Shown here piece after piece: positions 16,137 to 57,386 of a DNA stretch of 64,000 nucleotides. Within the stretch, counting starts at the first letter, position 1; the number at the start of each line of letters is the position of its first letter. The position numbers and the translations under genes are program-made. Source of the DNA: Eledone cirrhosa (Eukaryota). Location: the NCBI GenBank assembly GCA_964016885.1, contig OZ024762.1, forward strand, positions 15,376,001 through 15,440,000. Direction: 5' to 3'. The notes under the pieces were generated by a model. That model saw only the letters and a list, made by a program, of their open reading frames with translations. It was not told the origin of the DNA and ran no database searches.

Positions 16137-16656
16137 AAGTTTTAGAGATATAACTATATAACTTTTATAACTTTGATAGGTTTCGGCCACTATTGGTCGA
16201 GACCATGTCTAAATTAATAGCACCATCTGACGAAGTCTTTCAATTCATGATATGGAGTCCATGGCCCACTCTAGTAGAGTCATTGTTCTTGGATAACGTT
16301 TATTTCATACAAAGGGGTATTGGGTTGCTATTTCTAGCAGGTCACGGGTACAGACAGAGGTAGAGGCTACTTCCTGGTCTTAACAAACTGCTAGTATTTT
16401 GGGGGGAACGTAAGAGGGTCACACTTGTTTTGAGGGGGGTGGGGTGGAAAGAGGAGGAGAAGGTGAAAGGTAAAAGAAGAAAAGTAAAAACGAAACAAAA
16501 AAGTCAATGTAAAGGTAGCTAACTCCAGACGCTAACCCTAACCCTAACACCAGACCCTAACTCCCTAATATATTTGATATAGAAAGGCTTCTACAGGACT
16601 ACTATGTATTGAGTACCTTACTTACGGTGGTTACCCCCGATTGAACCCGGGATAAA

Positions 16657-16686
<30 letters not shown>

Positions 16687-17902: not shown

Positions 17903-18086
17903 CGAAGGAAATGTGGTACGGAAGTACTCAATACTTAGGGTAGTAGAGTGGGTAATAGGAACGAGTAGGACCCCGACGGCTGAGCTCAAGCCGTTTCGAC
18001 GGCTAATTCTGGACTAAAGTAGAGTAGTCCAGAATTACCCGTCGAAACGGCTTGTGCTCAGCCGTCGGGGTCCTACTCGTTCCTAT
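17900..18086. mobile_element. Family F foldback element (inverted repeat 17955-18086)
   Basis: aggaccccgacggctgagctcaagccgtttcgac is mirrored; other copies at about 21808, 22012, 29505, 30178, 31030, 42630 and 46530. Confidence 0.8.
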
Positions 18087-20680: not shown

Positions 20681-21212
20681 ATGACAGCTTTACGGAGCGG
20701 CGTCTGCACGGCTCTGCTGTTTTCGGTGTTTTTTCTCACCGGGGTTGTCGTCTGTTCAGGCCTCGGCCTGGTTGGCGACAACGATGAGGTCTACAACAAC
20801 GGGATGACTCTGGTCGGAGAGAACCGCTGGGACGGTATGGGAATGGAGAAAACCCATTGCATCGACACACCAGATTCACTGGAAGTGTGTAAGGACATCG
20901 GATACAGTCAAATGAGGCTTCCCAACTTGTTGGACCACAGCAGTTTACCCGAGGTAGTGCAACAGTTCAGTTCTTGGAGACATCTAATCGGTCGTAAATG
21001 TAGTCCTCACACCAGACTTTTCCTCTGTTCGCTTTTTACGCCGGTTTGTTTAGACAGGAAGATATTTCCGTGTCGTTCGCTCTGTAACTTAGTGAAGGAC
21101 AGCTGTGAAGATATTATGAAACAGTGGGGCTACCCTTGGCCAGATATGCTTAAATGTGATAAGTTCCCGTCACAAAACGACCTCTGTATCGATTCCCAGC
21201 ATATTGATGCAG
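20681..21212 (+). CDS. SFRP: Secreted frizzled-related protein (sFRP1/2/5-like), first coding exon: signal peptide and Frizzled CRD
   Basis: Hydrophobic leader MTALRSGVCTALLFSVFFLTGVVVCS, then a ten-Cys CRD: C..IGYSQMRLPNLLDH..EVVQQ..SW..FLCSLFTPVCLDR..PCRSLC..VKDSC..GYPWPDMLKCDKFP..NDLCI. Donor cag|GTAAGA at 21213, phase 1. An alternative in-frame ATG lies at 20654. Confidence 0.93.
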
Positions 21213-21337
21213 GTAAGATAAACAAACAAACAAGCAAAAAACAAAAAAAAAAATCAATATTTTAGTACTTTCTATCTTTTGTTGTTTTTTTTTCAGTATC
21301 GGTATTTACAATTATCTGTCTATCAGCCTGCCTATTT

Positions 21338-21496: not shown

Positions 21497-21509
21497 ATTA
21501 ATATAGAAA

Positions 21510-21560
21510 GGCTTCTACAGGACTAGAACTGTTTCATTCGGTAGAAATCATCAGGAAGCC
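21510..21560 (-). ncRNA. Hammerhead ribozyme, family C (inverted partner 21560-21604 lacks the 5' strand of stem I)
   Basis: Reverse complement reads ggcttc-CTGATGA-tttc tacc gaat-GAAA-cag ttctagtc ctg-TA-gaagcc (GUA site). Confidence 0.8.
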
Positions 21561-21709
21561 TGATGATTTCTCCGAAATGAAACAGTTCTAGTCCTGTAGA
21601 AGCCTTTCAATATTAAATATTTATACTCTGCTTTGTATTCAGTACCTTACTTACTGTGGTTACCCCCAATTGGACCCTGGATAAACTCATATATATGTAT
21701 ATATATATG

Positions 21710-21807: not shown

Positions 21808-22180
21808 GAAAAAGAGTCAGGACCCCGACGGCTGAGCTCCGGCCGTTTCGACAGCTATTGTCGAAACGGCCGGAGCTCAGCCGTCGGGGTCCTGACTCTT
21901 TTCTTATTACCCACTCTACTGCTCTAAGTATTGAGTACTCTGTTGAGTGATGGTCTAGTTGGTTCCTTACCATACTTCATTCGTTATATATATATATATA
22001 TAGATATATATGAAAAGATTCAGGACCCCGACGGCTGAGCTCCGACCGTTTAGCTGTCGAAACGGCCGGAGCTCAGCCGTCGGGGTCCTGAATCTTTTCA
22101 TATTACCCACTCTATTACCCCAAGTATCGAGTACTCTGGTGGGTTATGGTCTAGCTGGTTTTTACCACACCCTATCTGAT
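21808..22180. mobile_element. Two adjacent family F foldback elements
   Basis: Inverted repeats at 21808-21903 and 22012-22100, each followed by a tattacccactct...gagtactct tail. Confidence 0.8.
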
Positions 22181-22549
22181 ATATTTATATGTGTGTGTAT
22201 GTATATATATGTATATGTGTATTTATGTATATTCATTGATTTATTTATTCAATTTAAACGTCCGTATAGAGCTAGTAAGCCATGGGAGACTCGGGGAAGT
22301 ATCGAATACTCCTTACAGTTGGTAATCAAATAGAGTAAGTGAGACAAGTAATAAAAAAAAAATCCTTAAAAAAACCCCTAAAAATAGGGAAAAAAATTAT
22401 ATATATATATATATATATATTAATATAGAAGAGCTTCTACAGGACTAGAACTGTTTCATTCGTGAGAAATAATCAGAGAAAACATTTATACTCTGCTATG
22501 TATTGAGTATCTTACTTACTGTGGTTACCCCCGATTGATCCCGGAATAA

Positions 22550-22637
<88 letters not shown>

Positions 22638-29469: not shown

Positions 29470-29507
<38 letters not shown>

Positions 29508-29665
29508 AACCAGTAAGAACCCGACGGCTGAGCTCAAGCCGTTTCGACGGCTAATTCTGGACTTTGGTGCGTTCTGGTCCACCTGGTTCCTTACCACATT
29601 TCCTTCGTTATATATATATATATATATATATAAATTTTTATGATGTCTACCTGTTATTATTCATT

Positions 29666-30134: not shown

Positions 30135-30182
<48 letters not shown>

Positions 30183-30404
30183 AACCAGTAAGACCCCGAC
30201 AGCTGAGCTCAAGCCGTTTCGACGGCTAATTCTGGACATGTTTCGACGGCTAATTCTGGACATTATTAGTCCAGAACTAGCCGTCGAAACGGCTTGAGCT
30301 CAGCTGTCGGAGTCTTACTGGTTCCTATTACCCACTCTACTACCGCAAGTATTGAGTACTTTGGTGCGTTATGGTCCACCTGGTTCCTTACCACATCTCA
30401 TTCG

Positions 30405-30963: not shown

Positions 30964-31030
<67 letters not shown>

Positions 31031-31166
31031 GTCCAGAATTAGCCGTCGAAACGGCTTGAGCTCAGCCGTCGGGATCTTACTCGTTCATATTACCCACTCT
31101 ACTACCCTAAGTATTGAGTACTTTGGTGGGTTATGGTCCATCTGGTTCCTTACCACATTTCTTTCG

Positions 31167-33695: not shown

Positions 33696-36270
33696 TCTGT
33701 GTGTTGTATGGTGGGTGTGTATGTGTGTTGTATGGTGGGTGTGTATGTGTGTTGTATGGTGTGTGTGTATGTGTGTTGTATGGTGGGTGTGTATGTGTGT
33801 TGTATGGTGGGTGTGTATGTGTGTTGTATGGTGGGTGTGTATATGTGTTGTATGGTGGGTGTGTATGTGTGTTGTATGGTGGGTGTGTATATGTGTTGTA
33901 TGGTGGGTGTGTATGTGTGTTGTATGGTGGGTGTGTATGTGTGTTGTATGGTGGGTGTGTATGTGTGTTGTATGGTGGGTGTGTATGTGTGTTGTATGGT
34001 GGGTGTGTATGTGTGTTGTATGGTGTATGTGTATGTGTGTTGTATGGTGGGTGTGTATGTGTGTTGTATGGTGGGTGTGTATGTGTGTTGTATGGTGGGT
34101 GTGTATGTGTGTTGTATGGTGGGTGTGTATATGTGTTGTATGGTGTGTGTGTATGTGTGTTGTATGGTGGGTGTGTATGTGTGTTGTATGGTGGGTGTGT
34201 ATGTGTGTTGTATGGTGGGTGTGTATATGTGTTGTATGGTGGGTGTGTATGTGTGTTGTATGGTGGGTGTGTATATGTGTTGTATGGTGGGTGTGTATGT
34301 GTGTTGTATGGTGGGTGTGTATGTGTGTTGTATGGTGGGTGTGTATATGTGTTGTATGGTGGGTGTGTATATGTGTTGTATGGTGGGTGTGTATGTGTGT
34401 TGTATGGTGGGTGTGTATGTGTGTTGTATGGTGGGTGTGTATGTGTGTTGTATGGTGGGTGTGTATGTGTGTTGTATGGTGGGTGTGTATATGTGTTGTA
34501 TGGTGTGTGTGTATGTGTGTTGTATGGTGGGTGTGTATGTGTGTTGTATGGTGGGTGTGTATGTGTGTTGTATGGTGGGTGTGTATATGTGTTGTATGGT
34601 GGGTGTGTATGTGTGTTGTATGGTGGGTGTGTATATGTGTTGTATGGTGGGTGTGTATGTGTGTTGTATGGTGGGTGTGTATGTGTGTTGTATGGTGGGT
34701 GTGTATGTGTGTTGTATGGTGGGTGTGTATGTGTGTTGTATGGTGGGTGTGTATGTGTGTTGTATGGTGTATGTGTATGTGTGTTGTATGGTGGGTGTGT
34801 ATGTGTGTTGTATGGTGGGTGTGTATGTGTGTTGTATGGTGGGTGTGTATGTGTGTTGTATGGTGGGTGTGTATATGTGTTGTATGGTGGGTGTGTATAT
34901 GTGTTGTATGGTGGGTGTGTATGTGTGTTGTATGGTGGGTGTGTATGTGTGTTGTATGGTGGGTGTGTATGTGTGTTGTATGGTGGGTGTGTATGTGTGT
35001 TGTATGGTGGGTGTGTATGTGTGTTGTATGGTGTGTGTGTATGTGTGTTGTATGGTGCGTGTGTATGTGTGTTGTATGGTGGGTGTGTATGTGTGTTGTA
35101 TGGTGGGTGTGTATGTGTGTTGTATGGTGGGTGTGTATGTGTGTTGTATGGTGGGTGTGTATGTGTGTTGTATGGTGGGTGTGTATGTGTGTTGTATGGT
35201 GGGTGTGTATGTGTGTTGTATGGTGGGTGTGTATGTGTGTTGTATGGTGGGTGTGTATGTGTGTTGTATGGTGGGTGTGTATGTGTGTTGTATGGTGGGT
35301 GTGTATGTGTGTTGTATGGTGGGTGTGTATGTGTGTTGTATGGTGGGTGTGTATGTGTGTTGTATGGTGGGTGTGTATGTGTGTTGTATGGTGGGTGTGT
35401 ATGTGTGTTGTATGGTGTGTGTGTATGTGTGTTGTATGGTGCGTGTGTATGTGTGTTGTATGGTGGGTGTGTATGTGTGTTGTATGGTGGGTGTGTATGT
35501 GTGTTGTATGGTGGGTGTGTATGTGTGTTGTATGGTGGGTGTGTATGTGTGTTGTATGGTGGGTGTGTATGTGTGTTGTATGGTGGGTGTGTATGTGTGT
35601 TGTATGGTGGGTGTGTATGTGTGTTGTATGGTGGGTGTGTATGTGTGTTGTATGGTGGGTGTGTATGTGTGTTGTATGGTGGGTGTGTATGTGTGTTGTA
35701 TGGTGGGTGTGTATGTGTGTTGTATGGTGGGTGTGTATGTGTGTTGTATGGTGGGTGTGTATGTGTGTTGTATGGTGGGTGTGTATGTGTGTTGTATGGT
35801 GGGTGTGTATGTGTGTTGTATGGTGGGTGTGTATGTGTGTTGTATGGTGGGTGTGTATGTGTGTTGTATGGTGGGTGTGTATGTGTGTTGTATGGTGGGT
35901 GTGTATGTGTGTTGTATGGTGGGTGTGTATGTGTGTTGTATGGTGGGTGTGTATGTGTGTTGTATGGTGGGTGTGTATGTGTGTTGTATGGTGGGTGTGT
36001 ATGTGTGTTGTATGGTGGGTGTGTATGTGTGTTGTATGGTGGGTGTGTATGTGTGTTGTATGGTGGGTGTGTATGTGTGTTGTATGGTGGGTGTGTATGT
36101 GTGTTGTATGGTGGGTGTGTATGTGTGTTGTATGGTGTATGTGTATGGTGGGTATGTATGTGTGTTGTATGGTGGGTGTGTATGTGTGTTGTATGGTGGG
36201 TGTGTATGTGTGTTGTATGGTGTATGTGTATGGTGGGTGTGTATGTGTGTTGTATGGTGGGTGTGTATGT
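33696..36270. repeat. 24-bp minisatellite (tatggtgggtgtgtatgtgtgttg)n, about 105 copies
   Basis: Direct reading; a stop-free unit gives the ~890-aa pseudo-ORFs in four frames. Confidence 0.97.
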
Positions 36271-36480
36271 GTGTATGTGTGTATGTGTATGTGTATGTGT
36301 GTATGTGTATGTGTAGATGTTTATATATAGACACGGAGATAGTTCTCTCCTAGATTTGTTCGCGTGTGTTTATATATATATGTATGTATGTATATATATA
36401 TGTATGTATATATATATATATGTATGTATATATATATATGTATGTATATATATATGTATGTATATATATATATATATGTG

Positions 36481-39126: not shown

Positions 39127-39543
39127 TATATATATATATATATACATATATATGTGTGCGTGTGTGTGTGTATATATATATCTGTGTATGTGTATGTATA
39201 TGTATATATATGTGTGTAGATATAGGTGTGAAAATATATTTCTGGAAATAGTTCGAGGGTATTTTTTTTTTTCATAGCAGAAGAAAAAGGAGGAGAAAAA
39301 AACCAGAGATGAATTTATCACCGAGAGTATGTTGTGATGATAGCAGACATTCCTGTCTTTCGGGGAACCAAAGTTTCTTGGGGTTTTTTGGTGAGGGTGG
39401 GGGGTGGGTAAGGGGGTGGATGGGGAGGTATTTGGTGGATGGAATATTTGTGATAAATGCATGACTTTTAAGCAACACATCAATCAGTTAATCACTCACT
39501 CATACATTGAAGGGAGAGAGCGAGAGAGGATGAAATAATAATA

Positions 39544-39620
<77 letters not shown>

Positions 39621-40123
39621 TTATCACATTCTGAGAAGTGGTATGAGCATAAGCCAGAGTCGGTGATAGAAAACGATCAGGTGAAGGTGCTGTGGGATTT
39701 TAGGATACAGACGGACAAGAAACTGGAACACAATAGACCTGACCTGGTGGTTTTGGACAAGGAAAAAAGATCGTGCCTGATTGTGGATGTGGCTTGCTCA
39801 TTCGACACGAGAGTGCAAGAAAAGGAGAGGGAGAAAATTAACCGATACCAGGATTTAAAGTGGGAGCTAAAAAGGATTTGGAACTGCCATGAAGTCAAAG
39901 TGATCCCGATTGTCATAGGCGCACTAGGTACTATCTCAAAGAGTTTCCAAGGATGGTTAAAGAAGATTGGTCCCGCCTCGCTTTTTGGAACACTTCAAAA
40001 GGCATGCTTGCTGGGAACAGCATTAACCCTCCGATACGTCCTGAATATCCGAGGCTGCAGGTAGCGGCTTGATATTCATTTCAACAAACTTTCCAGTTAA
40101 ATAACATCAATGACTGAGACTCA
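39621..40123 (+). mobile_element. 5'-truncated R4/Dong-clade LINE (REL endonuclease and 3' UTR) inside (TAA)n
   Basis: KWYEHKPESVIENDQVKVLWDFRIQTDKKLEHNRPDLVVLDK..LIVDVAC..EKINRYQDL..IPIVIGALG..LQKACLLGT has the PD..D catalytic motif. (TAA)n on both sides is the known Dong target. Confidence 0.9.
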
Positions 40124-42617: not shown

Positions 42618-42898
42618 CATAAATATATATATGAAAAGATTCAGGACCCCGACGACTGAGCTTCGGCCGTTTCGACAGCTAAACAGCCGGAGCTCAGCCG
42701 TCGAGGACCTGAATCTTTTAATATTACCCACTCTATTACCCCAAGTATCGAGCACTCTAGGGGGTTATGGTCTACCTGGTTTTTACCACACCCTATCTGA
42801 TATATTTATATATGTGTATATATATATATATGTATGACTACTACTACAGGTATTGAAGGTTCAAGACCTTAGGGGTATGTCGAACAGCCAATCTCTTA

Positions 42899-43652: not shown

Positions 43653-43765
43653 TTGAATTAGTATGGTATAGACAAGTACATATGTTGTTTAGGTGTATGA
43701 TATTGTCAATACTCTGATATGCCCAGTTCCTTGTTGGGTTGTTAAAATTCACTGGGGAACTGGAG

Positions 43766-43841
<76 letters not shown>

Positions 43842-43844
43842 TAT

Positions 43845-43893
43845 GATTCCTGATGATTTCTAAAGAATGAAACAGTTCTAGTCCTGTAGAATC
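43845..43893 (+). ncRNA. Hammerhead ribozyme, family C, tandem copy 1
   Basis: gattc-CTGATGA-tttc taaa gaat-GAAA-cag ttctagtc ctg-TA-gaatc. Confidence 0.8.
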
Positions 43894-43896
43894 TCA

Positions 43897-43930
<34 letters not shown>

Positions 43931-43942
43931 ATATATATATAT

Positions 43943-43991
43943 GATTCCTGATGATTTCTAAAGAATGAAACAGTTCTAGTCCTGTAGAATC
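43943..43991 (+). ncRNA. Hammerhead ribozyme, family C, tandem copy 2
   Basis: Identical to 43845-43893, 98 nt downstream. Confidence 0.8.
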
Positions 43992-43994
43992 TCA

Positions 43995-44785
<791 letters not shown>

Positions 44786-45163
44786 AATAGAATGAAACGA
44801 AATTTCATTTCTCACTCTTAGTACGGTACTTACTTAAGTGTACAAACAAACCGAGCATTATAATAAATGTTCGGTAAACCGATACGTGCATATATATATG
44901 TGTGCATGTATGTATATATATACATACTACTGTACGTCTGTATACATATATGTATGTACGTATACATACATACATACTTACATTTAAGTAAGTGCCGTAC
45001 TAAGAGTGAAAACATGAAATTTCGTTTCATTCTATCCCATTTATCGTTTTCGGTATGCCCAGCCGACTGAACTCACTCGATATGCAAATTAGGCTGCTCA
45101 GCCGTTAATATGCATAAGGAAAGTATATACTTTCAGACGTTCAACCACCTGGCAGGAAGGTAT

Positions 45164-45206
45164 ACGATGCTGACGATAGCTAATAAGCTTGAAACTAGTA
45201 CATCGT
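45164..45206 (+). ncRNA. Minimal hammerhead ribozyme, family H
   Basis: acgatg-CTGACGA-t agct aata agct t-GAAA-ctag-TA-catcgt; perfect 6-bp stem I, GUA site, ctag palindrome. Confidence 0.85.
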
Positions 45207-45520
45207 TCCTGTATCAGTGTTGAACAAAAAGGTGACGTGGTTGCCTAAACACTGTACGGCGTAATTCGGGCTGTTTGTTTGTTTACAAACAAACAAACCG
45301 AGCATTATAATAAATGTTCGGTAAACCGATACGTGCATATATATATGTGTGCATGTATGTATATATATACATACTACTGTACGTCTGTATACATATATGT
45401 ATGTATACATACATACATACTTATATATATATATATATATTAAAATAACCGATTAAAGTTTCTTGGATTTTAGTCTTCAAATTTATTATTATTACTATAT
45501 GTATATATACATATATATAC

Positions 45521-46341: not shown

Positions 46342-46676
46342 TAGATATAAATATATATCGTTATGTAATAAACCTAATAAGATAATTATTTCATTTACCA
46401 GTGGTTTCTTCATTCATCACAATAAATAATATATATATATATATATAACGAAGGAAGTGTGGTAAGGAACCAGGTGGACCGTAACGCACCAGAGTACTCA
46501 GTACTTTGGGTAGTAGAGTGGGTAATAGGAAAATGTTCAAGACCCCGACGGCAGAACTCAAGCCGTTTCGACGGCTATTTCTAGTCCAGAAATAGCCGTC
46601 GAAATGGTTTGAGCTCTGCCGTCGCGTCGGGGTCTTGAACATTTTCATATATATATATATATATATATATAAATTA

Positions 46677-57186: not shown

Positions 57187-57386
57187 NNNNNNNNNNNNNN
57201 NNNNNNNNNNNNNNNNNNNNNNNNNNNNNNNNNNNNNNNNNNNNNNNNNNNNNNNNNNNNNNNNNNNNNNNNNNNNNNNNNNNNNNNNNNNNNNNNNNNN
57301 NNNNNNNNNNNNNNNNNNNNNNNNNNNNNNNNNNNNNNNNNNNNNNNNNNNNNNNNNNNNNNNNNNNNNNNNNNNNNNNNNNNNNN
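57187..57386. other. Assembly gap (200 N)
   Basis: Run of N. Confidence 0.99.

Follow-up and report, generated by a model that had tools for sequence, protein, structure and literature searches.

Two type I hammerhead ribozymes that recur at a period of 98 nt in the 64,000-nt stretch of Eledone cirrhosa DNA analysed here (the window) are probably a dead-end local duplicate of the truncated end of a Penelope-type retroelement. One copy appears to have been made from the other at this site, together with its flank, since the two share loop 2, a rare 5′ junction and a rare AA interruption of the neighbouring TA tract. A simple local duplication had been named as an alternative in a preliminary description of this DNA, and it is the reading that fits these common features best.

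The pair consists of two exact copies of a 49-nt motif on the plus strand (43845-43893 and 43943-43991), and identity between the copies extends over 55 nt (43845-43899 and 43943-43997). TRF reports a period of 98 with 2.4 copies, in agreement with the earlier claim of two identical hammerheads of one family, referred to here as family C, repeated every 98 nt. The motif gave no match in 100 dinucleotide shuffles, which rules out a chance match as its source. The 49-nt spacer had been described as (CT)n(TA)n only; its microsatellite character stands, but it also holds a family tail and an AA interruption, the order being TCATCT (the 6-nt family tail), (CT)6, (AT)9, AA and 11 nt of TA. In total, 43 of the 98 nt of the unit (44%) are microsatellite. 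The flanks of the two copies differ: the AA is 9 nt upstream of copy 1 but 11 nt upstream of copy 2, and (CT)7 follows copy 1, whereas a single CT and then (AT)24, without a CT run, follow copy 2.

Table 1. Coordinates of the hammerhead pair, its surroundings and related features of the window.
Feature	Positions	Strand	Basis
Left flank (TA)n, AA interruption 9 nt ahead of copy 1; likely insertion target	43768-43844	.	sequence, TRF
Hammerhead copy 1, family C, 5′-truncated type I; predicted cut after 43888	43845-43893	+	descriptor; truncation from reads
Family tail TCATCT, 6 nt, short 3′ end; complementary to core GAUGA	43894-43899	+	reads, folding
Microsatellite linker, 43 nt: (CT)6 (AT)9 AA + 11 nt TA	43900-43942	.	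sequence
Hammerhead copy 2, same as copy 1; predicted cut after 43986	43943-43991	+	descriptor
6-nt family tail of copy 2, entering (AT)n via ATAT microhomology with the family's own next bases	43992-43997	+	
Right flank (AT)24	43998-44045	.	sequence
Hypothetical 98-nt unit-length RNA, 25.5% GC	43889-43986	+	computed
sFRP1/2/5-type first coding exon, Fz domain	20681-21212	+	Fz E 2.4e-28; donor GTAAGA at 21213
Family C inverted pair, head-to-head: short-end arm 21509-21561 on minus, long-tail arm from 21559 on plus, its tail reaching 88 nt beyond the cut	21509-21686	.	
Family C relative: inverted short-end arm, core mutated, joined to long tail	22427-22552	.	
Family C relative: both arms heavily truncated, short-end / long-tail layout	16589-16658	.	

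A descriptor scan reads each copy as a type I hammerhead with helix I open, and the core elements CUGANGA, GAAA and NUH are present at the three-helix junction of both. Helix I has 5 bp and is followed by the core CUGAUGA; helix II comprises a U.U mismatch, 3 bp and a 4-nt loop, after which comes GAAA; helix III has 4 bp and an 8-nt loop with the palindrome CUAG at its centre. Cleavage is predicted after GUA, at 43888 in copy 1 and at 43986 in copy 2. The usual G10.1-C11.1 pair is absent in both copies and replaced by U.U, a tolerated hammerhead variant (PMC3088659; PMC7229834) that would lower the expected activity rather than remove the copies from the hammerhead class. Dimers of an axolotl hammerhead with U.U at the helix II base cleave well (PMC7229834). 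Rfam gave no match of any kind over the window at its gathering threshold, and the 29 matches found up to E 10 in 43700-44100 were AT-repeat noise with no hammerhead among them.

An 81-nt query (43832-43912) was compared at 85% likeness with four of the 23 listed sequencing runs of the species (X1, X4, X21 and X22). Matches were found for 4591 of 17,142,217 contigs in X1 and 171 of 762,587 in X4, and for 3627 of 12,467,656 raw reads in X21 and 3868 of 12,785,554 in X22. Read shares given below count reads, not loci, and variation is taken from rows listed at 2% or more. A consensus ending in GATACCCA precedes the motif in 769 reads of X21 and 796 of X22 and is absent from the pair. By eye, this upstream context adds a sixth pair to helix I and, beyond an internal loop, another helix of GAU/AUC, and the extended form matches the canonical hammerhead with its 6-bp helix I and 4-pair helix II (PMC4209133). 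Both copies of the pair are therefore 5′-truncated, lacking the sixth helix I pair and the loop 1 strand that are normal for family C. They had been thought trimmed to the boundaries of stem I; this boundary is a 5′ truncation relative to the usual upstream strand, and we reject the idea of purposeful trimming.

The share of reads that vary at a given position is 19-51% in loop 2, 3% or less in loop 3, at most 6% in helices II and III and at most 7% in the core. In helix I, a compensatory change separates subfamilies (GATTC/GAATC and GGCTTC/GAAGCC, seen in window copies and in the loose ends of reads). The low variation of helices and core, together with this compensatory change, suggests that the hammerhead fold is under constraint in family C, and the fixed palindromic loop 3 fits work as a dimer. 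Strand inversions start at 43845-43853 in 11 of the 15 joints listed, and the 5′ strand of helix I is apparently a frequent stop point of copying. TA stands directly upstream of the motif in 0.6-0.8% of reads and a CT run downstream in 0.4-0.9%. Three minor joints also go back along the motif, one of them to T43844 (X21, 3 reads; X22, 2 reads), so that TA-joined hammerhead pairs may recur.

The strongest go-back joint in the reads is a different one, from 43899 to 43845 with 22-23 letters between, which gives a period of 77-78 nt. It is carried by three X1 contigs at depths of 153, 120 and 64, well above the 5.6-14.9 of the remaining X1 records listed, which roughly hints at collapsed copies; by 94 reads from 18 starts in X21 and 27 reads from 9 starts in X22; and by none in X4. 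This form has at least 10 distinct linkers; those listed all join the start of the tail to an upstream strand of the GATACCCA type, and the tandems probably descend from one junction. The 77-78-nt unit appears to keep the full ribozyme including the loop 1 strand, the extended helix I again being read by eye.

Judged by its insertion marks, family C seems to be a Penelope-type end and to work like one. Penelope-like elements (PLEs) are recognised by partial tandems, inverted 5′-truncated copies, a one-sided tail and a microsatellite bias (PMC8557442; PMC11167929), and the marks of their pLTRs present in family C are 5′-truncated copies with adjacent inversions, two 3′ ends, a one-sided tail and microsatellite bias. 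The hammerhead-bearing pLTR ends described for PLEs (PMC4209133, PMC8557442, PMC11167929) are, like family C, type I with a palindromic loop 3 suited to dimers, and likewise occur as thousands of dispersed 5′-truncated copies with head-to-head inversions, AT-rich microsatellite targets and partial tandems. In contrast to them, family C has U10.1.U11.1 instead of G-C, a helix II of 3 bp rather than 7-8 bp, and a tail of about 70-77 nt, its short ends lying 11-18 nt and its long end 88 nt beyond the cut, rather than 30-40 bp. Beside such ends the window pair is a stub of a stub, and no PLE open reading frame could be linked to family C in the window. Among the 115 open reading frames scanned against Pfam, out of 260 candidates in the window, there was no match to a reverse transcriptase or GIY-YIG domain, and eight weak sub-threshold matches were judged to be chance. 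A 176-aa open frame on the plus strand (39534-40064), with no Pfam match at E 0.001, presumably resembles the restriction-like endonuclease end of R2/R4-type LINEs. Scans of metagenomes gave no match with the 49-nt motif and none with a 21-nt tail motif. Our literature search found no description of family C or of cephalopod hammerheads; a repeat annotation of Octopus vulgaris lists Penelope-like families, and its main text does not mention the word ribozyme (PMC13282606).

The window contains 16 type I hammerheads of several families that pass the descriptor, spanning 7099-53448, compared with none in the reversed sequence and 0-1 in each of 20 shuffles (21 controls). Rfam detected none of the 16. 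Many are head-to-head inverted pairs with a one-sided tail (13645/13737, 15752/15894, 53166/53448). At the three family C loci other than the pair, the inverted arm ends 11-18 nt past the cut and the long tail of the other arm has a constant end, which in the single intact example (21509-21686) lies 88 nt beyond the cut. An inverted short arm with a fixed-end long tail is thus seen at three of the four family C loci, the pair itself being without the inverted arm, and at all four one or both ends lie in (TA)n. On the minus strand, the family C remnant at 16519-16600 has a short 3′ end that enters degenerate TTAGGG-like repeats instead of (TA)n. Another partial tandem lies at 44784-45400, where a hammerhead at 45170 and an inverted repeat are enclosed by the two arms of a perfect 112-nt direct repeat, 44842-44953 and 45289-45400, at a distance of 447. 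The window also holds a family of GC-rich, near-perfect hairpin elements flanked by (TA)n (17955-18083, 21810-21902, 22013-22103, 29506-29563, 30181-30325, 31029-31086, 42634-42719 and 46525-46650), in which the descriptor finds no hammerhead.

The preliminary description held that the geometry of the pair permits a double-hammerhead fold, and folding agrees. With the pairs enforced, the predicted ensemble energy is -22.8 kcal/mol for the double hammerhead and -16.4 kcal/mol for two monomers, favouring the double form by about 6 kcal/mol, and the helix III between copies has a pair probability of 0.6-0.94 in all four lengths folded; the free ensemble of the pair lies at -30.7 kcal/mol. The further claim, that such a fold would release a unit-length RNA of 98 nt, fares poorly in the same model. 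The outer junction (cut 43986) has a predicted probability of 0.03, the inner one (43888) of 8e-5, about 1e-4, and both together of 3e-6, and flanking sequence lowers these values further. The inner junction is predicted to be blocked by the tail UCAUC, which no longer has its upstream partner and binds the second core instead. For copy 1 plus tail the probability of the active fold is 4e-5, compared with 1.4e-2 for the 7-bp relative at 21561. The 98-nt unit is not self-paired (z -0.55) and its circular MFE is -9.8 kcal/mol; the monomer MFE of the pair is -6.0 to -7.2. Nearest-neighbour folding ignores Mg, tertiary contacts and proteins, and one Penelope hammerhead was protein-assisted (PMC11167929). 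On these predictions, little or no 98-nt RNA should form without the help of protein. Some cutting by the pair is nevertheless plausible, because of the two active folds the double hammerhead is the favoured one, and loop 3 hardly varies in the family.

The duplication may have proceeded as follows. A PLE reverse transcriptase would have primed at the short 3′ end, some 11 nt beyond the cut site, within a (TA)n or (CT)n(AT)n tract. Reverse transcription would then have stopped in the 5′ strand of helix I, the hot spot for stops and inversions, leaving a 55-nt stub without loop 1; here we infer from the marks of the family as a whole. In a second step the stub was copied at the site together with its AA-marked upstream TA flank. 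The copying may have come about by slippage of the DNA or by unequal exchange between the TA tracts on either side; alternatively, a second priming event next to the existing stub may have been joined to it via homology, and nicking within an element's own pLTR has been proposed for PLEs (PMC11167929). A single duplication alone does not account for the (CT)7 after copy 1 and the one CT after copy 2, and a further event must be assumed; the 9/11-nt and CT-run differences could stem from microsatellite slippage or from priming at a new point, and a second priming would explain the differing 3′ junctions. If transcribed, the copies are predicted to pair through the palindromic loops of helix III, a mode for which the family seems suited, with a weak outer junction (43986) and a blocked inner one (43888).

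Shared features of the two copies and their flanks speak for descent of one from the other. Two random reads share loop 2 with a probability of about 0.07 if positions are independent, and AA at 9-11 nt occurs at 7 of 375 TA-tract ends in all, two of which belong to the pair, leaving 5 of 373 others. At 2686/2719 an AA-marked TA unit recurs with the 9/11-nt variation of the pair's flanks but with no ribozyme. The surrounding stretch, 2660-2760, is a minisatellite of AA-interrupted TA tracts with a pattern as in the flanks of the pair.

Four other explanations have to be weighed against local duplication. The copies differ in microsatellite lengths only, as alleles would, and we considered that the assembly may have joined in tandem two alleles of a single chromosomal copy with unlike microsatellites around it. 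Assemblies are known to have trouble with PLE insertions in tandem or inverted arrangement (PMC8557442), and no read spans the pair, which the runs could hardly have shown. However, longer repeats are resolved gap-free in the window (a 24-mer repeated 107 times at 33698-36274, and TA tracts of 1.4-1.7 kb), and its single 200-N gap suggests long reads able to span 250 nt, so we regard an artefact as quite unlikely. Two independent insertions into one TA tract would draw on the great abundance of family C and its preference for TA, and both kinds of 3′ junction do occur at other loci (CT-joined ends in 0.4-0.9% of reads); yet chance would have to account at once for the shared loop 2 (about 0.07), the 5′ junction (below 1%) and the AA position (5 of 373 other tract ends), and of all the readings this one strikes us as the most improbable.

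The two remaining explanations involve a tandem or circular ancestor. The preliminary description likened the 98-nt unit to a micro-retrozyme or ribozyme satellite, in which a circular or multimeric 98-nt RNA would have served as template for reverse transcription from the short 3′ end more than once round the unit, writing two hammerheads and one linker, the unit being mobile or expressed. One such event would give both the AA-marked flank on each copy and a CT run at the inner junction alone. The predicted preference for the double hammerhead over monomers, the recurrence of a 77-78-nt tandem of the same ribozyme in the species and the computational listing of units this short in vertebrates (51-972 bp; 10.64898/2026.07.22.740005) are also in its favour. 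Against it, there are two copies only, loop 1 is lost, the inner junction is predicted to misfold, and the unit, 44% microsatellite and not self-paired, is unlike the retrozyme circles tested in PMC7229834; one of nine dimers tested in 10.64898/2026.07.22.740005 cleaved. The 98-nt joint (43912 back to about 43832) was seen in none of the four runs, in which contigs cannot span the linker and RAD reads cover few loci. We consider a micro-retrozyme very unlikely. Slightly less credible again is descent from the 77-78-nt tandem family, the pair being a decayed dimer in which expanding microsatellite replaced the AT-rich linker. The ribozyme of that family spans the same 55 nt (joint 43899 to 43845) and its linker is AT-rich and contains an AA, but the GATACCCA end of the linker is gone before both copies while the ribozymes remain identical, and such a selective loss is unlikely to have happened twice.

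Local duplication of a truncated Penelope-type end can also be set beside what is described for retrozymes. Non-LTR retrozymes consist, like the pair, of head-to-tail type I hammerheads (PMC7229834; 10.64898/2026.07.22.740005). Provided that the assembly is correct, the pair falls within the operational retrozyme definition of 2026, having two consecutive units, a complete motif and an MFE below the cut-off of -5 (10.64898/2026.07.22.740005). The features of retrozymes that it does not show are a canonical helix I with loop 1 and a highly self-paired unit. Tested retrozymes have units of 150-450 bp, are multi-copy and expressed as self-paired circles, and mostly make loop 1-loop 2 contacts (PMC7229834). 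The pair, in contrast, is 98 nt long, present in two copies, 44% microsatellite and without loop 1. The axolotl HHR_Amex2 (Rtz_353) is, like the pair, type I with U.U at the base of helix II, and is more active as a dimer; compared by description, it has a 350-bp unit, about 60,000 copies and a 2-bp helix III, whereas family C has a 4-bp helix III with an 8-nt loop (PMC7229834). Tandem hammerhead repeats derived from Penelope ends, of 51-972 bp, are already described, and the birth of retrozymes by local duplication of a PLE end has been proposed (10.64898/2026.07.22.740005). Local copying of a common jumping-gene end within a TA repeat is ordinary.

The 77-78-nt tandem form is a more interesting lead than the 98-nt pair. 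Family C may have spawned a self-amplifying mini-element of 77-78 nt that consists of little besides one full hammerhead (loop 1 strand, core and tail). It would be cut from multimers by double-hammerhead pairing via loop 3, close into a circle and serve a Penelope reverse transcriptase as template; the 98-nt pair would be a microsatellite-linked offshoot. We raise this scenario as a conjecture, and an unlikely one.

The pair lies downstream of a first coding exon of sFRP1/2/5 type, whose closest relatives are two full-length sequences at 68-70%, with named molluscs at about 60%. Neither tblastn with 11 of 120 homologues nor a motif scan revealed a later sFRP exon in the window, which leaves the 42.8 kb downstream of the exon 1 donor (21213-64000, with a 200-N gap at 57187-57386) without a second sFRP exon; the position of the pair in an sFRP intron is putative. 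Both ribozymes are on the sFRP sense strand, as had been stated, exon 1 and the pair both reading on the plus strand. Downstream of exon 1 there are six sense and four antisense hammerheads, and we reject a special meaning of the sense orientation. The lack of a strand bias argues against strong cutting.

Read as a local duplicate, the pair, one of 16 hammerhead remnants in 64 kb, carries little weight, and shows a Penelope-type end turning tandem, the first step proposed for the birth of retrozymes. If the sense-strand hammerheads in the putative sFRP intron cut, they would have a bearing on the splicing of a developmental gene. If the conjecture of a self-amplifying mini-element is true, the 77-78-nt element would be expressed as a ribozyme circle roughly half as large as any of the retrozymes tested in PMC7229834 and 10.64898/2026.07.22.740005. 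The 77-78-nt tandem offers a cheap test of the minimum size at which a ribozyme repeat still cleaves, forms circles and spreads, and the natural occurrence of forms that have loop 1 and forms that lack it provides a test of what Penelope hammerheads do.
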